A stretch of DNA of 63,974 nucleotides, filler included, from a bacterium (lineage in GTDB: Bacteria > JALSQH01): assembly GCA_027004335.1 (NCBI GenBank). It is 12 parts of 12 records of this genome, joined end to end, with 100 filler letters (N's around TTAATTAATTAA, not from the genome) between each part and the next. Parts side by side here need not be neighbours in the genome. Positions count along the whole stretch, not along the records: positions 1 to 9,604 come from JALTID010000142.1; 11 more parts are not named here. The stretch is one strand, 5' to 3'. Below are positions 1 to 9,604 of the stretch, one piece after another. The position numbers were made by a program, and so were the translations under genes. The notes below the pieces were generated by a model. It searched no databases. It was not told the DNA's origin and saw only the letters and a program-made list of their open reading frames with translations. Numbering within the stretch: position 1 is the stretch's first letter; the number at the start of each line of letters is the position of its first letter.

Positions 1-482
1 GTAGGAAGCCTGTCTATATCCAACTCCCCAGTTACCTGTACAACCCTCCTCCCATTCTCCGAAGTAAAAGCTTCCCACTTAACATTCTTAAAATACTTGT
101 AATTATCAAAGGCCTCTCCAACAGTGATTGACTTATCAAAATCCAGAATGCCACCTTTCACAAGAGCAACATCGCTTGTTGTTTCTTTTATTCCACTTGC
201 AAGAATCCCAACAAAAAACAGCCCGAAAAATCCCAGAACAATGACTCTTCGGGTTTGAGGAACATCAACAGGATGCTCCTTGGCTTTTTCGATTAGTTCT
301 TTTCTCTTTATTAGATAGAGAGGAAATCCAATGATCCACAGCAGCCAGGTTACTACTGCCCATCCCCCCGCAGACATATTTGTAAAGCTCTTCTCCCCTG
401 GAATTTTCCCTATCTTGTTCTTTGTTGCATCGTAATAAACCCAGAAGGCTGAAGCAATTATAATTAATGCTATGTAATTCAT
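1..482 (-). CDS. Hypothetical membrane protein, runs off the left window edge (not in ORF track)
   Basis: Manual translation from ATG at 482: MNYIALIIIASAFWVYYDATKNKIGKIPGEKSFTNMSAGGWAVVTWLLWIIGFPLYLIKRK...; G-rich RBS upstream; about 3 hydrophobic segments; open to position 1. Confidence 0.75.
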   Translation of the reverse strand, partial: MNYIALIIIASAFWVYYDATKNKIGKIPGEKSFTNMSAGGWAVVTWLLWIIGFPLYLIKRKELIEKAKEHPVDVPQTRRVIVLGFFGLFFVGILASGIKETTSDVALVKGGILDFDKSITVGEAFDNYKYFKNVKWEAFTSENGRRVVQVTGELDIDRLP

Positions 483-720
483 TTTCCCCCCTTGTTTTTT
501 TACTCTAAATTCCACTATTTGTTAAATACAACTTAAGTGCCACAAATGCAACCCACTGAAAATAAAACTTTTCTTTTAATAAAATAAATCTATCCTCAAA
601 TTTTATACATAAGTTTTAGAAAATTGACAAATTTTAACCAAATTTCTCCCTTTCAAAACTAAATATACTGCTCACCATGGTAGAAAATATTTATCCCTTC
701 TTACATTTACCGGCGTTAGC

Positions 721-749
721 TTGACAATTAGGTTACTATATGCTATCCT
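721..749 (+). promoter_or_regulatory. Sigma70 promoter of the FadR-GRE operon
   Basis: TTGACA (721-726), 17-nt spacer, TGc extended -10, then TATCCT (744-749). Confidence 0.75.
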
Positions 750-751
750 CA

Positions 752-768
752 AATTGGTACGACCATTG
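752..768. promoter_or_regulatory. Putative FadR-subfamily operator
   Basis: AATTGGTACGACCATTG contains TGGT-N3-ACCA, the FadR-subfamily palindrome; lies just downstream of the -10 box and upstream of the FadR gene. Confidence 0.7.
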
Positions 769-785
769 AACCAGTGGAGGTGATA

Positions 786-1523
786 ATGGATTTTCTGGGA
801 AAAATTGAGCCCTTGAAGCCCCAGAGGATTTCCGATGAAATTCTCAATATCCTGGTAGAAGAGATCCTAACAGGAAAATTTTCATCGGGTGACAAACTCC
901 CACCAGAAAGGATGCTGGCTGAAAAATTTGGTGTCCACCGCAACAGTGTAAGAGAAGCCATAAAAAAATTAGAAATGCTTGGCCTGGTAGAGGTTAAGCA
1001 GGGCAACGGCTCTCTTATAAAAGCCATAGATAAAGAGGGGAATATCCTTCTATTGGGATACATTTTTGAGCATCCAGAATTTGTAACTCTGAAAATTTTA
1101 AAAGATCTGCTGAGATTCAGATATCTTCTTGAGACAGATGCCGCAGAGCAGGCAGCAACAATGAGAAGCGAAAAAGAACTGGTTTTACTGAATGAAATCC
1201 TTTATCAGGAAGAGAGAAATTTCAGCAATTCACCAATTTTTTCTCAGCTGGATTATGAACTACATCAGCAGATTATTACTGCTTCAAAAAATGTAGTTCT
1301 TCAGCTTGTTATAAACTCTATAAAAAATACCTATCTCACTTTTTCAGGAATTTTCTTCAGTGAAGTAGAAGTGATCCCATTCGTATATGAAAGACATGTA
1401 AGGCTAATTGACGCAATAAAAGAAAAAAATGGGAAACTTGCAAGGAAAATAATGGAGGAACTTTTAATCCATGGAGAGGAACATCTCCTTAAAAAACTCC
1501 AGAAGGGAGGGAGCTATGAGTAA
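786..1523 (+). CDS. GntR/FadR-family transcriptional regulator
   Basis: wHTH GDKLPPERMLAEKFGVHRNSVREAIKKLE...QGNG plus FCD domain (R.LLE...A..AA; D.ELH..I..AS.N); GGAGGTG RBS before ATG 786. Confidence 0.93.
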   Translation: MDFLGKIEPLKPQRISDEILNILVEEILTGKFSSGDKLPPERMLAEKFGVHRNSVREAIKKLEMLGLVEVKQGNGSLIKAIDKEGNILLLGYIFEHPEFVTLKILKDLLRFRYLLETDAAEQAATMRSEKELVLLNEILYQEERNFSNSPIFSQLDYELHQQIITASKNVVLQLVINSIKNTYLTFSGIFFSEVEVIPFVYERHVRLIDAIKEKNGKLARKIMEELLIHGEEHLLKKLQKGGSYE

Positions 1524-3915
1524 AGAATCAGCAACAGTAAGAATCTGGAAACCCTCAGAAAAACTACCCCCCAGAATTAAGAAACTGAGAGATGAGTATT
1601 TTTCATTCTACGACAGAGATTATTTTAGAAATGAGGTGAGGGCATACACCACGGGAATGCCCGGTGATCCGGTATGGTCACCTCACAACTGGGGGGTAGT
1701 CCCCGAACTTTTTCCATTCATGAAAGGGATGTTTGATGCATTGAGAGCTTTGGCTGAAGAAGTTAAAGTGCCTGATGATTTCTGGAAACATACCATTGCA
1801 TATAGAAGAGGATTATTCTTTAAAATTGTTTTAGAAAAATATCTGCCGGTAAAAATCCTTGAGCAGGAGCTGATTGTAGGATCATATTTCAATACAGCCC
1901 TCTCCAAGGTTCTTAGACCTGATGAGCAAAAAGAGTGGTATAAAAGAGAATTCCGCTGGTATAAGAAACTTGAATTTTTAAATGATGTGGGAATTGGAAA
2001 TACCGGTGCAATCCCTGGACACATCATTCCCAATTATCCAAAAGTTTTAAAGATGGGTATGAAAGGGATCGTGGAGTATATTGAAAGTGAGATTGAGAAA
2101 GAAACAGATAAAGAAAAGATAGAGTTTCTCCAGTCCATGATTCTATCTTTAGAAAGTGCAAAGATGCTATCTGAGCGTTACAGCTGGGAGGCAAGAAAAC
2201 TGGCTCAGGAAGAAAAAGACCCTCAGAGAAAGGAAGAGTTAGAGGAGATCGCAAGGATCACGGCAAAAGTACCATGGGAACCAGCTGAAACCTTCTGGGA
2301 GGCGCTCCAGTCCATCTGGATTACCCATATGCTGGTGATGGCAGCTGAATCTTACCCGGGTGCAGGTTTATCCCATGGGAGATTTGATCAATACATGTAT
2401 CCCTACTACAAAAAGGATATTGAAGAGGGCAGGATAACAAAGGAATTTGCCAGAGAGCTTCTCATGGCATACTGGATCAAGCACAACTATGTGTATGATT
2501 ATCAAGGAAGAGTTGGGCAGAATCAGGGAATTAATTCCGGTTTTGGCCAGTTGATGACTCTAAGCGGGAAGGGTCCCAATGGTGAAGATATGACCAATGA
2601 GTTAACATGGTTGATTTTTGATGTGATTGAAGATATGAATTTACTGGAGCCAAAACCAAATATAAGAGTGCATAAAAATACCCCGGAACCCGTTCTCAAA
2701 AGGATCACTTCCATGGTAACCAAAACACAGGGCTCACCTTTCCTCATTAATTTTGATGAACAGGCAATTAAAGGACTTCTCTGGCAGGGGATGCCAGAAG
2801 AAGAAGTATGGGATTACGCTCCAGTAGGCTGTCTTGAAAATACTTTTCAGGGCAAGGATAGATCAGGAACAGTTGATGTGAATATTAATCTTTTAAAGGC
2901 CATAGAATTGACTCTTTTTAACGGCAGGGATATCAGAACAGGCAAAAGAATAGGATTGAAAACAGGTGACCCCAGAAAATTCAAAACATTTGAGGAGTTC
3001 AAACAAGCTTTCGTAAAACAGCTTAAATATATCATTGATAAACTTCTTGAACTTGCCATGGAGGCTGATGCCATAAGGGCAAAATTTGAACCCATTCCCT
3101 ATCTCTCTGCAATTGTTGATGGTTGTATTGAAAAAAGAAAGGATGTTACAGCAGGAGGCCCAGTGTACAACTTTATCACCGTGGAGGGGATCGGCCTTGC
3201 CAACACAGCTGACTCCCTCACAGCAGCTAAAAAACTTGTGTTTGAAGAGAAAAAGATTTCAATGGACGAGTTACTCTACCATATCCAGAATAATTTTGAG
3301 GGCAGAGAAGGTGAAAAGATCAGACAGATACTGATAAATAAAGCACCTAAATATGGCAATGATAATGATGAAGCTGATGCTATGGCACGATTTGTTTCGC
3401 AACTCTGGACAAAATATGTATTTACCAAAAAAAGTCCAACAACAGGAAGGAGATTTAGAGGAGGTTACCTCTCATGGAATTACTGGATAGCATACGCACC
3501 TGCTGTATCAGCCACCCCTGATGGTAGAAGGAGGGGAACATTTCTTGCCAATGCAATTGGACCTATTGACGGAATGGCAAAAAAAGGACCCACGGCGGAA
3601 GCACTTTCTGTGGGTAAATTAGGACTTGAAACAGCACCAAATGGGGATTCCCACACCATGAATTTCAGTCCTGCGATGCTAAGAGACGAAGAGCATGTAG
3701 AAAAAATGGCAAATTTCCTGAGAACTTATAACGAAAAAGGTGGCACTGCTCTGCAGATCAACATAATTGATGCTGATACACTGAGAGAGGCGCAGAAGCA
3801 TCCAGAAGATTACCAAAACCTTCTTGTAAGGATCACAGGCTACAATGCCTACTTTGTGATGTTAGGTAAGGAAATGCAGGATGAAATTATTGCAAGAGAA
3901 TCGCATAAGCTATAA
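1516..3915 (+). CDS. Glycyl radical enzyme (PFL2/eliminase-like superfamily), substrate unknown
   Basis: C-terminal glycyl motif LLVRITGYNAYF; Cys loop PVGCLEN; GRFDQYMYPYY; APKYGNDNDEAD; ATPDGR; ATG 1516 overlaps the FadR 3' end. Confidence 0.93.
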   Translation: MSKESATVRIWKPSEKLPPRIKKLRDEYFSFYDRDYFRNEVRAYTTGMPGDPVWSPHNWGVVPELFPFMKGMFDALRALAEEVKVPDDFWKHTIAYRRGLFFKIVLEKYLPVKILEQELIVGSYFNTALSKVLRPDEQKEWYKREFRWYKKLEFLNDVGIGNTGAIPGHIIPNYPKVLKMGMKGIVEYIESEIEKETDKEKIEFLQSMILSLESAKMLSERYSWEARKLAQEEKDPQRKEELEEIARITAKVPWEPAETFWEALQSIWITHMLVMAAESYPGAGLSHGRFDQYMYPYYKKDIEEGRITKEFARELLMAYWIKHNYVYDYQGRVGQNQGINSGFGQLMTLSGKGPNGEDMTNELTWLIFDVIEDMNLLEPKPNIRVHKNTPEPVLKRITSMVTKTQGSPFLINFDEQAIKGLLWQGMPEEEVWDYAPVGCLENTFQGKDRSGTVDVNINLLKAIELTLFNGRDIRTGKRIGLKTGDPRKFKTFEEFKQAFVKQLKYIIDKLLELAMEADAIRAKFEPIPYLSAIVDGCIEKRKDVTAGGPVYNFITVEGIGLANTADSLTAAKKLVFEEKKISMDELLYHIQNNFEGREGEKIRQILINKAPKYGNDNDEADAMARFVSQLWTKYVFTKKSPTTGRRFRGGYLSWNYWIAYAPAVSATPDGRRRGTFLANAIGPIDGMAKKGPTAEALSVGKLGLETAPNGDSHTMNFSPAMLRDEEHVEKMANFLRTYNEKGGTALQINIIDADTLREAQKHPEDYQNLLVRITGYNAYFVMLGKEMQDEIIARESHKL

Positions 3916-4849
3916 TACTGATGAAAACTACGCTATGATCTTTAATATCGAGCGTTTCAGTACCGAAGATGGACCGGGGATAAGGACCACCGTCTTTTTT
4001 AAAGGATGCCCGCTTAAATGCCCATGGTGTCACAATCCAGAGAGTATTGACAGGAATCCTCAGCTTGTATGGTACTCAGTAAGATGTATTGCCACCATGG
4101 ATTGCATTAAAGCATGTAAAGAAAATGCCCTTCAGCTCACCCCCGAGGGGATGTACATAGACAGAATAAAATGTACCGCATGTGGTGATTGTGTTGAAGC
4201 GTGCCCATCAGGTGCTCTGGAGCTTATAGGAGAATATAAGAGTGTGGAAGAAATATTTGATGAGGTTATGAGGGACAACTCTTTTTACAAAAACTCCGAA
4301 GGAGGAGTAACCTTCGGAGGAGGAGAACCATTACTCCAGTATTACCCTTTAACCAGGCTTGCCATGATGTTCAAAGAAGCAGGTGTCCATACGGCTCTTG
4401 ATACTACTGCTTTTACTGCTAAAAAAATCCTAAATATGGTTCTTCCCTACATTGATCTTGTTCTTCTTGATCTCAAACAGATGGACCCAGAGCTTCATAT
4501 AAAATATACAGGAGTACCCAACAAAACAATACTTGAAAATGCAAAATATATTTCTCAGGTTCATAAGAAGAAGATCTGGGTGAGAACCCCTGTGATTCCT
4601 GGGTATACTGACCAGGATGAAAATATTGAAGCTGTGGCGAAATTCATTAAAGAAAATCTTCCCACATGTGAGCGTTATGATCTTCTTGCCTTTAACAACA
4701 CCTGCAAGGATAAATATGATAGATTGGGGATAAAATTTGAATTGGCTGACACTCCACTAATGAGGAGAGGAAGAATGCAGCAACTCCTTGATCTGGCAGT
4801 AAGAAAAGGAATCCCCACTACTTACTGGACAGGAACAGTTAGAGATTAA
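3881..4849 (+). CDS. Glycyl-radical enzyme activating protein (radical SAM with ferredoxin insert)
   Basis: FSTEDGPGIRTTVFFKGCPLKCPWCHNPES (CX3CX2C), GGGEP, ferredoxin insert CTACGDCVEACP. Confidence 0.95.
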   Translation: MKLLQENRISYNTDENYAMIFNIERFSTEDGPGIRTTVFFKGCPLKCPWCHNPESIDRNPQLVWYSVRCIATMDCIKACKENALQLTPEGMYIDRIKCTACGDCVEACPSGALELIGEYKSVEEIFDEVMRDNSFYKNSEGGVTFGGGEPLLQYYPLTRLAMMFKEAGVHTALDTTAFTAKKILNMVLPYIDLVLLDLKQMDPELHIKYTGVPNKTILENAKYISQVHKKKIWVRTPVIPGYTDQDENIEAVAKFIKENLPTCERYDLLAFNNTCKDKYDRLGIKFELADTPLMRRGRMQQLLDLAVRKGIPTTYWTGTVRD

Positions 4850-4860
4850 GGAGGTAAACC

Positions 4861-5685
4861 ATGCTCTCAAAAGGAGCTCTTGAAATATTCAGAGGACCGT
4901 TAAATCCAAAATTTCTCGCCACTGTGGGTGAGGATGGAAGGCCCAATGTGGTTCTTATAATCTCCATCACTGCTCCCACAGATGATCATCTTGCTTTCGG
5001 GGAATTTATGATATGGAAAACAAAGAAAAATCTCCTGAACAATAATAAAATATACATATATGCCTTTACACAGAAGTTCAAAGCAACTGCAGGAAGAGCA
5101 CTCTTCAAGGGTTTTGTTAAAATGGGCCCAGAGGTTGACTATATAAACAACATGGATCTCTTCAGATACAACGCCTATACAGGAATAAGAAGCGCAGGGA
5201 TCATTCAGCCACTTTCAGAATTTCCCACTTTCAGAATACCAATAGTGTCCAGTCTTACCGGAATGGGATTACTTCAGGCAGGTAAGACACTTTTCAGGTT
5301 AACCAACAGAAAATCAGAGATTGAAATTCCAGAAGCAGTAAGAGAAAAATTTGATAAACTACTTGGCTTCAAAGTTATCTCTTTTGTAGAAGAAGACGGA
5401 TTCCCGGTAATTTTCCTCACCATGGCAATGAAACTTGTTGGAGATCATCTTATATTTCCCATCAACGGCCAGAACAAAAAAATTAAGAAGTTTCAAGAAG
5501 GTTCTCCTGTGGCAGTTGATATTCTTACTCTTGAACCAGCTTCCTATCAGCTCAAAGGAATATATGAAGGATACTCCCGCTGGGGGACTACCCCTGTAGG
5601 AAAAATCAAAGTCACAGAGGTGTATTCTGCTTCTCCTCCAGTACCGGGAAAGTTGATAAGCAGCGCAGAAGGAAGAGAACCTTAA
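4861..5685 (+). CDS. Tandem pyridoxamine 5'-phosphate oxidase-like (split-barrel, putative FMN-binding) protein
   Basis: Two related halves (KFLATVGEDGRPNVV / KVISFVEEDGFPVI); KTKKNLLNN and SYQLKG motifs typical of the family; AGGAGGT RBS. Confidence 0.7.
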   Translation: MLSKGALEIFRGPLNPKFLATVGEDGRPNVVLIISITAPTDDHLAFGEFMIWKTKKNLLNNNKIYIYAFTQKFKATAGRALFKGFVKMGPEVDYINNMDLFRYNAYTGIRSAGIIQPLSEFPTFRIPIVSSLTGMGLLQAGKTLFRLTNRKSEIEIPEAVREKFDKLLGFKVISFVEEDGFPVIFLTMAMKLVGDHLIFPINGQNKKIKKFQEGSPVAVDILTLEPASYQLKGIYEGYSRWGTTPVGKIKVTEVYSASPPVPGKLISSAEGREP

Positions 5686-5871
5686 GAAATTCTTAATCTT
5701 AAGAACAGATAATAATTCCCTTTAACAACCTGATCGTTTTGATATAACCATATTGGTGATTTGATAGTCTCAACGACAGATATGTGAGATGGCGAAGCAC
5801 AGGAGAGACAAAAAATCTTTTCCTCTGCAGGTCATACCTACCAAAAATTGTGGTGGAAATTGGGCAGATCG

Positions 5872-5919
5872 ATTGTATACATTATACAATTTTGACATCA
5901 ATCTCATCCTCAATATAAT
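5872..5919 (+). promoter_or_regulatory. icd promoter with adjacent inverted repeat
   Basis: ATTGTATA-cat-TATACAAT (5872-5890), then TTGACA (5892-5897), 16 nt, TATAAT (5914-5919). Confidence 0.7.
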
Positions 5920-5950
5920 AGAAGCAAATCAATTTGATGGAGGTGAAAAT

Positions 5951-8194
5951 ATGGAAAAGAGGAAGCCTCTAATTACATGGACCAAGGTTGACGAAGCTCC
6001 CTATCTTGCAACATTCTCACTCTTACCAGCAGCGGAAAAGTTTATCGCAGCTGCAGGAATAGATATTGAAATTAAAAATATCTCACTTGCTGGAAGGATA
6101 CTTGCAACATTCTCCGAATATCTCACAGAGGATCAAAAAGTTCCTGATGATCTTGCTGAGTTAGGGGATAGGGTAGTAAATGACCCCTACATAAATCTTG
6201 TAAAATTACCCAATATCAGTGCTACGGTGGTTCAGGCAAAAGATGCAGTGAAGGAACTTCAGAAGAAGGGATACAAACTTCCTGATTATCCTGAAGAAGT
6301 TAAAACAGAAGAGGATAAAAAAATCCTTGAACTTTATTCAAAGGTGATAGGCAGTATCGTAAACCCCATCATCAGGCAGGGGAATAATATCAGATCTATA
6401 CCTCTCCCCGTTAAAGAAAGCGCAAGGAAATACCCCGACCAGATGGCTGGACTCCCCCTCAAAGACTGGGATAAAGGTTCAAAAACACATGTATCCCATA
6501 TGGATGGCGGAGATTTCTACGAAAATGAAAAATCTATAACTTCTCCGAAAGCTCAAAAAGTCAAGATTTACTTCCTTGATGAAAATGGTAATAAGAAGGA
6601 AATGAAGGCTCTTGAACTCATAGAGGGGGAAGTAATGGACTCCACATATATGGATGTCAGAGAACTCCAGAAATTCTTTGAAAGAGAAGTGGAAGACGCA
6701 AAAGAAAAAGGTGTCCTCTGGTCTGTACATCTTAAAGGCACCATGATGAAAGTTTCTGATCCCGTCATTTTTGGCTATGCAGTCAGAGCTTACTTCAAAG
6801 ACCTCTTTGAAAAATATGGGAAAGAGTTAGAGGAGATAGGATTTAACCCCAATGAAGGGCTTACAGGACTTTATAAAAAATTAGAAAAGGTTCCAGAGGA
6901 GAAAAGAAAAGCCATACAAGATGAAATCCAGAAGATCTATGATAAAAATCCCCCCATGTACATGGTTGACTCCAATAAGGGGATCACAAATTTACACGCT
7001 CCCAATCTGGTAATAATTGACGCCTCTATTCCACCCATTATCAGAGATGGTGGCAAAGCATGGGGACCTGATGGTAAACCTCATGATGTAAAAATAATCG
7101 TTCCAGACCGAAGCTACGGAACTTCATACAAAGAAATTGTTGCGGATTGCAGAAGAAATGGAAAATTTGATAGAAAAACCATGGGCTCAGTAATGAATAT
7201 TGGACTTATGGCAATGAAGGCTGAAGAATATGGTTCCCATGACAAAACTTTTATCGCTCCATCTGATGGAACTTTTCAGGTTGTGGATGAAGAGGGAAAT
7301 GTTCTTATGGAACACAAAGTTCAACAGGGTGACATCTGGAGAGGATGTCAGGTAAAGGACATAGCGGTGAAAAATTGGGTTCAGATCGCAGTGGGAAAGG
7401 CAAGAGAAACCGGAAACACCACCATATTCTGGCTGGACAGAAACAGGGGACACGATACTCAGCTGATCAAAAAAGTTGAAACATATCTCAAAGATTACGA
7501 CACCAGTGACCTTGATATAAGAATTCTACCACCTCCGGAAGCAATGAAGATCACAGTGGAAAAAGTAAGAAAAGGGGAGAATGTGATAGCGGTCACAGGA
7601 AATGTTCTCAGGGATTATCTCACAGACCTTTTCCCTATTCTTGAGGTTGGTACCAGTGCCAAAGTTCTATCTGTTATACCTCTTCTTAATGGAGGTAATC
7701 TGGTAGAAGCAGGAGCAGGTGGCTCTGCTCCAAAACATGTGTGGCAGTTCCTAGATGAAGGACATTTAAGATGGGACTCCACAGCTGAATTCACAGCACT
7801 TATTGAAGCTCTGAGGTTCATAGCTCAAAAATATGACTATCCAAAGGCAAAAATCCTTGCAGATACCGCAGAACAGGGCTTAATAAAACTCCTCCTCAAT
7901 AAGCAGTGGCCATCAAGAAAAGTTGGGGAGCTTGACACCAGAGGAGAGCATTACTACTTCATAAGATACTGGGCGGAGAATTTAGCTGCCCAGAATGATG
8001 ATGAAGAGCTGAAGAAAAAATTTGAAGCTCCTGCAAAAGCTCTTGCTGAAAATGAGGAAAAGATTTTAAATGAACTACTTGCCGCTCAGGGAAAACCAGT
8101 TGACATCAATGGTTACTACTTCTCCGATGAAGAAAAACTGGCAAAAGAGATGAGGCCAAGCCCCACCTACAACTCCATAATTGATTCCATGTAA
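5951..8194 (+). CDS. icd: Monomeric NADP-dependent isocitrate dehydrogenase
   Basis: [85 protein letters not shown] favours ATG 5951 over the ORF-track start 5789. Confidence 0.95.
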
Positions 8195-8199
8195 TCCTC

Positions 8200-8227
8200 A
8201 GGCGGGTCTTACGACCCGCCTCTTTTA
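8200..8227 (+). terminator. Intrinsic terminator after icd
   Basis: AGGCGGGTC-ttac-GACCCGCCT followed by CTTTT. Confidence 0.8.
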
Positions 8228-8373
8228 CTTCACCTTTCAGTCTCCACTACCTTTTCTTTCTTCCTCTCCTTTTTAAACATCCCCAGTCATCTCTTATGCT
8301 CTTTTATCTCTAATTTTATTGCTTCTCAGCCGTTAACTGACACTCTCCAATATATGTCCTTTCCCTGATATTC

Positions 8374-9549
8374 TTGAAACTACACCCCTGTAAATGGATA
8401 ATTGAAAAAATGGAGAGTAACAGTAAAACTGTGAGAAATTCCTCAAGATTTTTTCTCGTTACTCTTTTCATCCTTATCATGGCAACTCTGTATGTTGCTG
8501 ATAACATTTATCTGTTCTATTCAATTAAAAGCACTTTTCCTCTTTTTAAAGATAAAACATATCTCAGGATGTTGCAAATCATCTTCTGGAGCTTCGCAGT
8601 TATTTACCCCACAGGAGAGATCACAAGACACCTATGGAGAAAATACAACATTCTTTTAAATATTGGTGTTTTCTGGCTTGGATTTATGGGAATATTCTCA
8701 TCTTTTTATGTCTTAGGAGATATTGCCATATGCATCTTCAACTCACCACAGGAAAAAAAAATAGGTGCTTTCTCCCTTTCCCTGATAATTTTCATAATTT
8801 CTCTGAAGGAATTATTTCTACCAGTAAAAATAAAAAAAGTAAAAATTGTATCTCCAAAAATTAAAAATGAGACCAAAATAATCCAGGTTTCGGATCTCCA
8901 TCTGGGGTATCTCAAGAGTGAAAGGTGGCTGAAAAAAATTGTAAATTCCATCCTCAGGATGGAGGGAGAATTAATTCTTTTAACAGGGGATCTCATAGAC
9001 TGCAATTATCGTTGTATAAAAAAATATATAACGATTCTCCGGGAATTGGGAGAAAGTAAAAATGTACTGATTATTCCGGGGAATCACGACTACTTCTCAG
9101 AATTTAAAATTTTTAAAAGAGTATGCGAAGAAACTAACTTTACACTTCTTGATAACAAATGTAAAAGTGAAAAAGATATAAATATATGTGGAGTTCATGA
9201 CCCCACAGGCAGATTCTTCGGGTTTAACAGGAACATGGGAAAAGTTCTTTCTTCAATATCTTCTGAAAAATTTAATATTCTATTATCCCACACCCCTGTT
9301 AAAGAGAAAAGCGGTAATTTTGATCTAATTCTCAGTGGCCACACCCATGCAGGGCAGATTCCACCGATGGAACTCCTTGTATTTTTAGTATACTGGGATC
9401 CATGGGGATTAAAAAAATATGGAAATACAATTCACTACACCACCTCGGGAACTGGAACATGGGGGCCTCCCATGAGGTTCTTATCAAGGTCTGAAATAAT
9501 AATTTTTGAGTTAATCCCCCAAAAAGGTAAAATAGAGGATAATGGCTGA
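8374..9549 (+). CDS. Membrane-anchored metallophosphoesterase (YkuE-like)
   Basis: SDLHLG, TGDLID, PGNHDY, LSHTP, SGHTHAGQ, GTWGPPMR motifs; N-terminal TM helices; start may be ATG 8410. Confidence 0.9.
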   Translation: MKLHPCKWIIEKMESNSKTVRNSSRFFLVTLFILIMATLYVADNIYLFYSIKSTFPLFKDKTYLRMLQIIFWSFAVIYPTGEITRHLWRKYNILLNIGVFWLGFMGIFSSFYVLGDIAICIFNSPQEKKIGAFSLSLIIFIISLKELFLPVKIKKVKIVSPKIKNETKIIQVSDLHLGYLKSERWLKKIVNSILRMEGELILLTGDLIDCNYRCIKKYITILRELGESKNVLIIPGNHDYFSEFKIFKRVCEETNFTLLDNKCKSEKDINICGVHDPTGRFFGFNRNMGKVLSSISSEKFNILLSHTPVKEKSGNFDLILSGHTHAGQIPPMELLVFLVYWDPWGLKKYGNTIHYTTSGTGTWGPPMRFLSRSEIIIFELIPQKGKIEDNG

Positions 9550-9604
9550 AAATATAATAAAAATAGAAAATCCATGAAAACGGCGTACTGAAAAAGGGGG
9601 TAAT

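Follow-up and report, generated by a model that had tools for sequence, protein, structure and literature searches.

We describe a putative two-component glycyl radical enzyme (GRE) encoded in a window of 63,974 nucleotides (nt), the whole stretch of DNA that was analysed, from the bacterial assembly GCA_027004335.1 (lineage JALSQH01). Between positions 721 and 5685, the window holds a compact set of genes coding for a GntR/FCD regulator, the GRE, its radical SAM activating enzyme (AE) and a tandem split-beta-barrel protein (SB). Judged from its sequence, the GRE falls outside all characterised classes and is part of a large and highly conserved clade of bacteria and archaea, in which SB appears to be an obligate partner. 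In our preferred interpretation, to which we assign a probability of roughly 0.55, the four genes constitute a single operon under a repressor, and code for a two-subunit GRE of a so far uncharacterised clade that would perform eliminase-like chemistry on an anionic hydroxylated substrate, with a new kind of accessory subunit. GREs carry out key anaerobic reactions, and according to a June 2026 review, whole clades as well as all archaeal PFL-like GREs are still without a function (PMC13450708).

Classification of the glycyl radical enzyme

The GRE open reading frame (ORF) spans positions 1471-3915 on the + strand, and the gene most likely starts at ATG 1516, which is preceded by AGGGAGGGAG at 1504-1513, coding for 799 amino acids (aa) from 1516-3915. 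In this 799-aa form, the glycyl motif RITGY lies at residues 772-776 (Arg772, Gly775, Tyr776) and the Cys loop PVGCLEN at residues 436-442 (Cys439-Leu-Glu441), both as read in the initial annotation. Pfam recognises the PFL-like domain (487 bits) and the glycyl radical domain (Gly_radical PF01228, 92.8 bits; cutoff 22.2), and the glycyl motif and domain, the invariant Cys439 and the adjoining activase place the protein in the PFL-like GRE superfamily. Its Cys-x-Glu loop is that of the GRE 1,2-eliminases and isomerases, for which the role of this motif is defined in sections 5.6 and 5.7 of the review (PMC13450708).

The GRE scored below every NCBIfam equivalog cutoff. The best model was HypD (NF043068; 465 bits vs a cutoff of 1100), with HpsG at 448 vs 1000, HpfG at 420 vs 1000, CutC at 398 vs 1050, IAD at 311 vs 1100, HPAD at 247 vs 1150 and PFL at 106 vs 994. 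The generic model of the PFL2/glycerol dehydratase subfamily (TIGR01774) was also missed (534.6 vs 678.2), and matched only from residue 180. Among solved structures, the best match was the B12-independent glycerol dehydratase (GD; 405 bits, residues 167-797), and the next ones were 9rco, a 'glycyl radical protein' (395 bits), propanediol dehydratase (PD), HypD and CutC; the PD and GD scores (385 and 405 bits) compare with more than 1100 bits inside the clade. BSS, MASS, HPAD and PFL gave 193, 227, 158 and 82 bits, respectively.

Residue comparisons pointed in the same direction. His169 of the GRE aligns with His164 of GD and is thus retained, and other positions differ: the GD triplet Gly-His-Ser, like Trp-Asp-Ala of HypD and Gln-Thr-Gly of CutC, aligns with Gly-Ala-Gly of the window GRE, and the GD stretch Trp-His-Asp aligns with Gly-Thr-Val. 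We take His281-Ser282 and Asp447 to be the diol-binding residues of GD. The strand equivalent to a substrate-contact strand of other GREs reads Gly-Tyr-Leu-Ser-Trp-Asn-Tyr. An X-succinate synthase (Ass/Bss) is not indicated either, given the BSS and MASS scores and the presence of Glu441 at Cys+2, a position occupied by Ser in PflB and BssA (PMC7079210). The same paper reports that PhdB needs Cys-x-Gln, the Gln484Glu variant being inactive, and that Trp495 is essential (PMC7079210); the clade is set apart from PhdB by these residues, with Glu at Cys+2 in 54 of 54 members and Thr at Cys+13. The list of characterised classes was that of the June 2026 review (PMC13450708); those with a solved structure were covered by the structure comparison, HpfG by its NCBIfam model and PhdB by the Cys-x-Gln motif. 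The proposal that this GRE lies outside the characterised classes thus held, with all NCBIfam cutoffs failed, solved GREs reaching at most 405 bits, and a separate clade in the tree described below.

Extent and signature of the clade

A word-index search returned more than 100 cluster representatives with 59-76% identity to the GRE, each above 1100 bits, from Chloroflexota, Actinomycetota, Bacillota, Asgard archaea and others; source names of the homologues include Geothermincolales, Dehalococcoidia, Armatimonadetes, Helarchaeota, Lokiarchaeota, Hodarchaeota and Jordarchaeales. Mean column identity in an alignment with 22 homologues (alignment A1) was 72%. One genome per species was scanned, and the resulting 79 loci were grouped by identity to the window GRE into group A (at least 54%, 45 loci), group B (43-51%, 21 loci) and group C (at most 41%, 13 loci). 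A FastTree phylogeny of 64 full-length sequences placed the 54 rows of groups A and B together, separated from 10 other GREs by a branch whose SH-like support was 100%; group B was nested within A, and archaeal and bacterial rows were intermixed.

The NCBIfam models were run on 57 of 63 full-length sequences, five group A rows and L061 (internal stops) being left out. The TIGR01774 cutoff was passed by none of the 47 A and B members (387-568 bits, with matches from about residue 155-170) and by 7 of the 10 group C GREs, which matched from their N-termini. All 47 tested A and B members likewise failed the class cutoffs, the HypD model reaching 352-546 bits; clade members are presently annotated as PFL or HypD. 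A signature consisting of His169, the two-residue insertion Tyr280-Pro281, Cys-Leu-Glu-Asn-Thr, Arg449, Thr452-Val-Asp454, Asn456, Arg648 and Leu-Ser-Trp-Asn-Tyr656 was shared by all 54 A and B sequences and is largely lacking in group C. Arg772, Gly775 and Tyr776 were also found in all 54, and an N-terminal segment at about residues 41-95 is specific to the clade. Tyr651 of group A is replaced by Met in 14 of 14 group B sequences (proteins of 828-840 aa), and is a candidate specificity switch between the two groups. In three 'uncultured Chloroflexia' assemblies (L061, L062, L065), the GRE and AE frames are broken or contain stops, possibly as a result of assembly error or as pseudogenes.

Association of the clade with the split-barrel protein

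In the window, the SB gene lies 11 nt past the AE gene, at positions 4861-5685 of the + strand, and codes for 274 aa. The loci were searched by tBLASTn with the four window proteins, and those extending 2200 nt or more past the GRE were counted. SB was found downstream in 29 of 32 group A loci and in 15 of 15 group B loci, i.e., in 44 of 47 loci of the clade, vs none of 8 group C loci, and the refuting condition set by the initial annotation, a lack of co-occurrence between homologues and the split-barrel gene, was not borne out. From the SB side (80 metagenome loci), 47 loci extend 1100 nt or more upstream of SB, and 44 of these have AE or GRE there; 30 loci extend 4400 nt or more upstream, and in 25 of them a GRE is present within 5 kb. 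In the genomes of the three group A exceptions (L028, L031, L034), and in that of L033, whose locus is too short to judge, SB is encoded elsewhere (4/4); one of these distant SBs adjoins AE, and another, in the L033 genome, adjoins a second, divergent GRE. In this last case (L164, G044:C20, 2-349 and 1504-2304), the neighbouring GRE copy shows 40% identity over the last 116 residues and is not the group A GRE.

The order of the genes varies within the clade. SB comes directly after the GRE, with no AE between them, at L020, L035, L036, L138, L142, L147, L150 and L151; elsewhere, unrelated genes stand between GRE and AE-SB, among them those for an adenosine deaminase, a creatininase and a protein kinase. 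The adenosine deaminase occupies this place in two Anaerolineales genomes (L015, L032; e.g., L032 9369-10400), and a C69 peptidase comes after it in L032.

Neighbourhood mining covered 66 loci, whose 720 ORFs were grouped into clusters; about 140 representatives were then compared with Pfam. Beyond GRE, SB, AE and the FCD regulator, no cluster occurred in more than 6 of the 66 loci, and SB, named beforehand as the sole accessory gene of the window operon, was conserved across the clade neighbourhoods, where the FCD regulator recurred at some loci. Acyl-CoA dehydrogenases (5 loci), MFS transporters and enoyl-CoA hydratases (3 loci each) were considered as clues to the substrate and discarded as too sparse. 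The Thorarchaeota loci L039, L041, L042, L056 and L064 share a syntenic block around the cassette, with an upstream 723-aa protein, GNAT acetyltransferases, an MFS transporter and a Memo-like protein. On the flanks of the cassette in group B Clostridia from rumen and gut lie genes for two or three FAD proteins of the CrtI/amine-oxidase-like type and for an FAD/NAD/2Fe-2S reductase (L043 11270-15417; L045 1895-6069 and 11251-15393; L044 1362-3275), and one of these genomes also encodes a protein with a linalool dehydratase/isomerase domain; these flanking genes may relate to an isoprenoid-type metabolism in that sub-clade.

The split-barrel protein and its predicted complex with the GRE

SB scored 24.9 bits against the Pfam family PNPOx_N (PF01243; cutoff 28.1), and most of its homologues carry a precomputed PF01243 match. 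Thirty homologues align over the full length (alignment A2), with invariant Lys17, Asn29, Lys53-Thr54-x-x-Asn57-Leu58, Arg102-x-Asn-Ala-Tyr106, Gln230-x-Lys-Gly, Tyr255 and Pro259-Pro260, and with no invariant Cys or His across the 30 sequences. The structural model (predicted local distance difference test (pLDDT) 89.3, predicted template modelling score (pTM) 0.88) consists of two split beta-barrels linked by a long helix, and each predicted half superposes on FMN-binding proteins of about 120 aa (Foldseek E 1e-5; template modelling (TM) score 0.78, normalised to the target). With an independent aligner, the N-domain gave Z 12-13.9 over 113-125 residues to solved split barrels, including 2htd, 3in6, HupZ, an F420 reductase and the Desulfovibrio FMN-binding protein, and the top matches bind FMN, FAD or F420 (2htd, 3in6, 3f7e, 1axj, 7eg5; Z 11.7-13.9); model and fold searches together assign SB to the split-barrel fold.

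Compared as a family profile with solved structures, SB matched HupZ (E 3e-6), a heme-binding protein, and the FMN-binding 3in6 (E 7e-4), with HutZ also listed; a single-sequence PDB search returned only 4ybn (E 0.29). The Lys-Thr-x-x-Asn-Leu stretch, which we take to be the flavin-phosphate site of this fold family, is aligned in the profile matches, 3in6 included. Since the Lys-Thr-x-x-Asn motif is kept solely in the N-domain, SB would represent a fused pseudo-dimer that retains no more than one canonical cofactor site. From the modelled fold and this one motif we infer that SB may bind a flavin and could take part in a flavin step.

The SB profile retrieved 278 clusters at 50% identity (E <=1e-10) among 1.84 billion representatives, and in the ESM Atlas only clusters of its own family were returned. 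In a sample of 151 genomes from the Asgard phylum, to which the Thorarchaeota carrier belongs, 57 had a match at E <=1e-10, and 45 were full-length tandem forms. A search for SB in fused or extended form came back empty, which counts as weak evidence. Single-domain proteins of about 140 aa, matching the SB N-domain alone (profile 4-126; E 1e-32 to 1e-44), are encoded in about eight Asgard genomes; examples are G083:C66:9721-10086 and G061:C1:2526475-2526840.

The complex of GRE and SB was modelled with our own alignments and with GRE residues 1-725, the last 74 residues (glycyl radical domain) being left out. The predicted binding score was 0.66 (runs of 0.66, 0.58 and 0.67), and the best of three controls reached 0.35; the score mark is attained by 116 of 157 solved complexes vs 2 of 215 mismatched pairs, a calibration that is only rough here because of the alignments used. 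The runs agreed in at least 79% of the predicted contacts, with a partner pLDDT of at least 84. Two checks independent of the complex model were carried out on the predicted interface. Segments missing from at least 80% of group C GREs contributed 18 of the 29 GRE interface residues, vs 35 of the 696 others (Fisher p 3e-15), these clade-specific segments being an N-terminal insertion at about residues 49-80 and Tyr280-Pro281. On the SB side, 12 of 26 interface residues were at least 90% conserved, vs 35 of 248 others (p 2.6e-4), and the interface includes the three strongest motifs of the family (Phe-Arg-Tyr-Asn-Ala-Tyr, Tyr-Gln-x-Lys-Gly and Tyr-Ser-Ala-Ser-Pro-Pro). Further GRE contacts, at residues 280-281, 329-333 and 655-662, run along the strands that hold substrate contacts in GD, HypD and CutC, and by homology SB is therefore predicted to sit at the substrate-entry end of the barrel, opposite to the glycyl loop. 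According to this model, SB probably binds the GRE as a subunit, beyond the role of a mere pathway enzyme.

Operon organization and proposed regulation

The contig carrying the operon (C142, JALTID010000142.1) occupies positions 1-9604 of the window, the rest being N or outside C142, and the source genome comprises 1.5 Mb in 262 contigs and is 80% complete. Along the + strand, the order is regulator, GRE, AE and SB, followed by a monomeric isocitrate dehydrogenase and a metallophosphoesterase. The regulator ORF covers 774-1523 and its likely gene 786-1523 (+ strand; 245 aa), with ATG 786 behind GGAGG at 776-780. The GRE start overlaps the end of the regulator gene (stop codon 1521-1523) by 8 nt, and the AE gene (3881-4849, + strand; 322 aa) overlaps that of the GRE (stop codon 3913-3915) by 35 nt; together with the 11 nt between AE and SB, this confirms the tight coupling of the four genes on one contig. 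AE exceeds the TIGR02494 cutoff (335.6 bits vs 174.35) and falls below all class-specific activase cutoffs; its Pfam matches are to Radical_SAM and Fer4 families, with a ferredoxin-like insert for extra 4Fe-4S clusters. Among the usual GRE partners reported as lacking, no BMC shell domain was found in the 80% complete genome and no small Cys-rich (HiPIP-like) subunit gene was seen among the operon ORFs. A flavodoxin Pfam domain was likewise not found in this genome, at the same completeness.

A sigma-70-type promoter is located at 721-749 of the + strand (TTGACA, 17-nt spacer, TATCCT, with a TG extension before the -10; 10/12 matches). Promoter-like matches across the region were not above chance (20 found vs 22.1 expected from shuffles), and this one carries weight because it stands just 5' of the operator and the regulator gene. 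The candidate operator TGGTACGACCA, a TGGT-N3-ACCA inverted repeat at 755-765 (+ strand), lies 20 nt before the regulator ATG. Its motif matches once in the window and also in 20 of 100 shuffles, so it is not significant by count alone; its weight comes from its position and from its conservation, as the one genome of the same family has the identical 11-mer, again 20 nt ahead of the regulator ATG (L081 900-910). TGGT...ACCA is the usual operator shape of the FadR subfamily. Both elements had been proposed ahead of the operon by the initial annotation, and they were found there.

For the regulator, the domain matches agree with the initial annotation. It has an N-terminal GntR winged helix (PF00392, 68.2 bits) and a C-terminal FCD domain (PF07729, 66.5 bits), which define the FadR (FCD) subfamily of the GntR family, and it shares 58% identity with its counterpart ahead of the orthologous L081 operon. 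Nevertheless, it falls short of the cutoffs for FadR proper, the sensor of fatty acyl-CoA (71.8 vs 189 and 68.5 vs 249 for NF003444 and TIGR02812, respectively), and it lies under all NCBIfam equivalog cutoffs (NanR-like, 103 vs 260), its best partial matches being NanR, LldR, PdhR and GlcC. An FCD regulator is found directly upstream in 10 of the 66 clustered clade loci, plus the window and L081, and is a recurrent, non-universal companion of the GRE. Together with its candidate operator, the regulator provides a direct way towards the substrate.

The isocitrate dehydrogenase was considered as a fifth member of the operon and rejected, because it has its own consensus promoter (5892-5919) and is not syntenic in the sister genome. 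Its ORF (5789-8194) is probably annotated too long at the 5' end, with family models matching only from residue 58-62, and the perfect TTGACA-16-TATAAT promoter lies inside the start of this ORF; a strong terminator (9-bp stem, 7 GC) follows at 8200-8221. The source genome is phylogenetically isolated, with 1 of 40 relatives in the same family and 39 in the same domain only. The single DNA run containing part of the stretch (0.21 of words) is labelled hydrothermal vent metagenome, and no RNA run was listed as containing it.

Proposed mechanism and alternative interpretations

According to the preferred two-subunit reading, AE would install the glycyl radical on Gly775, the radical would pass from Gly775 to Cys439, and the latter would abstract a hydrogen from a carbinol carbon of the substrate. 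Glu441, in the invariant Cys-Leu-Glu loop, would act as base on the substrate hydroxyl as in GRE 1,2-eliminases and isomerases, and the C-X bond beside the carbinol carbon would be cleaved, resulting in elimination or isomerisation as in the Cys-x-Glu classes. The substrate is probably anionic, most likely a hydroxy-carboxylate, because invariant clade residues Arg449 and Arg648 lie near the active-site strands and the FCD regulator is of carboxylate type. SB would dock on the clade-specific insertions at the substrate-entry end and gate the channel as the beta subunits of BSS and MASS do and, if FMN is held as the fold suggests, it could add a redox step on substrate or product. From TGGTACGACCA, the regulator would keep the operon repressed, and binding of the substrate or of an acid related to it would lift this repression. 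Given that the conserved three-gene cassette has neither a transporter nor downstream enzymes, substrate and product may be common metabolites, or the product may be exported.

Several observations weigh against this interpretation. The substrate class is drawn from two arginines and from a regulator present at a minority of loci, and decarboxylase chemistry of the arylacetate type would also be compatible with the active site, given that HPAD and IAD carry Cys-x-Glu. The adjoining SB is missing at 3 of the 32 group A loci (L028, L031, L034), and 5 of the 30 SB loci have no GRE within 5 kb, two of them with AE only and three with neither. Conservation of the GRE interface is no higher than that of the remaining residues (7/29 vs 183/696), and in the truncated GRE model SB might clash with the 74 omitted residues, although by homology the predicted contacts are at the opposite end of the barrel. 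Finally, the PNPOx score is below its cutoff and the nearest solved sequence relative of SB is HupZ, which bears on the proposed flavin binding.

Other roles of SB were weighed on the same evidence. In a stronger form of the two-subunit reading, which we hold as a minority possibility, the flavin or cofactor site of SB would lie over the active-site funnel and electron transfer would be part of catalysis; in a variant, SB would present a cofactor-like molecule as the substrate of the GRE. Comparably tentative is the view of SB as a free flavoenzyme of the same short pathway, carrying out a redox or isomerisation step on the GRE product or substrate with no stable complex, as the HypD eliminase is followed by P5C reductase. 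Gene linkage fits this view equally well, the invariant SB residues Lys17, Asn29, Lys53, Thr54 and Asn57 lie off the interface as expected of a working cofactor site, and the GRE interface is not unusually conserved; conversely, the complex model outscored its controls (0.66 vs 0.35), the most conserved SB motifs and the GRE clade insertions map to the predicted interface, and no NAD(P)H-binding or other electron-input domain is fused to SB, for which the failure to find longer forms is weak evidence. It is rather doubtful that SB works without a flavin, as a structural or gating subunit or by presenting another ligand (heme-like, as in HupZ/HutZ) to the GRE. The HupZ profile match and the listing of HutZ, the restriction of Lys-Thr-x-x-Asn to the N-domain, and the split-barrel glutamyl-tRNA reductase binding protein 4n7r (Z 9.0), a precedent for a non-catalytic partner, speak for such a role, as does the statement, in section 4.2 of the review, that known GRE beta subunits gate rather than catalyse (PMC13450708); against it, the top fold matches of the SB model bind FMN, FAD or F420 (Z 11.7-13.9), and Lys-Thr-x-x-Asn-Leu aligns with FMN-binding 3in6.

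It seems improbable that SB is a dedicated low-potential donor to the 4Fe-4S cluster of AE in place of flavodoxin. The Desulfovibrio FMN-binding protein, a fold relative of SB, is a small redox protein, and SB stands directly after AE in most loci. The absence of flavodoxin from the window genome was also considered in favour of this role and was rejected as support, since all 5 of the other SB genomes checked have flavodoxin-like domains, in 4 cases above the cutoff. Moreover, SB accompanies none of the 8 other GRE loci, several of them in the same phyla, which ties it to the clade and not to activases; it stays by the GRE in the 8 loci with AE elsewhere, and the model puts it on the GRE. Least credible of all, to the point of being almost untenable, is that the GRE belongs to a known class (PFL, HypD or Ass/Bss types) after all. 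Asgard GREs have been named Ass/Bss from BLAST similarity (PMC8163825); nevertheless, all class models fail by a factor of at least two in bits, the PFL, BSS and MASS structures gave only 82, 193 and 227 bits, there is no Cys-Cys, and PflB and BssA have Ser where the clade has Glu (PMC7079210). The residues at the GD (Gly-His-Ser and Trp-His-Asp), HypD and CutC positions also differ, and no HiPIP-like small subunits were seen in the operon. The reading of Asgard GREs as hydrocarbon-activating from BLAST alone bears on metabolic reconstructions of sediment communities.

Comparison with known systems

The clade resembles GD, PD, HypD, CutC, IslA, HpsG, YbiW and PflD in its PFL-like ten-stranded barrel, its glycyl radical domain, its Cys-x-Glu motif and the equivalent of GD His164, and it shares with GD an activase with a ferredoxin-like insert. 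Unlike in the GD family, its first ~165 residues are not matched by the family model, Ala/Pro-Gly takes the place of His281-Ser282 and Thr-Val-Asp that of Trp-His-Asp, and Trp654/Tyr656, Arg449 and Arg648 are specific to the clade. In contrast to the cassettes of the Cys-x-Glu eliminases, that of the clade comes without aldehyde or imine enzymes, BMC genes or a transporter, and with an apparently obligate split-barrel partner.

As in BSS (beta, gamma), MASS (beta, gamma, delta) and HPAD (gamma), a second polypeptide is encoded beside the GRE, and the predicted place of SB, at the substrate-channel side of the catalytic subunit, is similar to that of the BSS and MASS beta subunits, whose loops cover the substrate channel according to section 4.2 of the review (PMC13450708). 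The same review describes accessory subunits in three GREs only, all of them HiPIP- or rubredoxin-like iron proteins (PMC13450708). Unlike these small proteins with Cys-ligated iron, SB is a 274-aa tandem split barrel of flavin-type fold, with no invariant Cys or His. Each modelled half of SB superposes on the Desulfovibrio vulgaris FMN-binding protein, Swol_0183 (3in6) and HupZ (TM 0.78; Z 12-13.9); whereas these are homodimers, SB would be a fused pseudo-dimer with a diverged second half and its own GRE-interface motifs, and its gene is linked to a GRE. A flavin-type subunit, if true, would broaden GRE chemistry, and if SB were a redox subunit, this would be the first PFL-like GRE with a net redox reaction ('GRE reductase/oxidase').

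Like PhdB, the clade combines a GRE, an activase and a regulator in a compact cassette with no downstream enzymes and, as proposed here, a carboxylate substrate, and the clade B proteins are similar in length to PhdB (glycyl Gly815); the residues set them apart, PhdB having Cys-x-Gln and Trp495, and the clade having Cys-Leu-Glu, with Thr where counting from the Cys leads to the place of Trp495. The literature searched contained no report of a GRE accompanied by a split-barrel protein, subscription-only papers and preprint supplements lying outside the search. A PNPOx-like gene of unexplained role, LssP, is encoded and expressed in the limonenylsuccinate synthase operon (PMC12583861), and SB is likened to it, as a PNPOx-like protein in a GRE operon, by description and not by sequence comparison; unlike in the SB system, the GRE that LssP accompanies is a genuine X-succinate synthase and has beta and gamma subunits. 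Taken together, the GRE, AE and regulator are of known kinds, and the clade, its N-terminal architecture and its apparently obligate partner of flavin-type fold are new.

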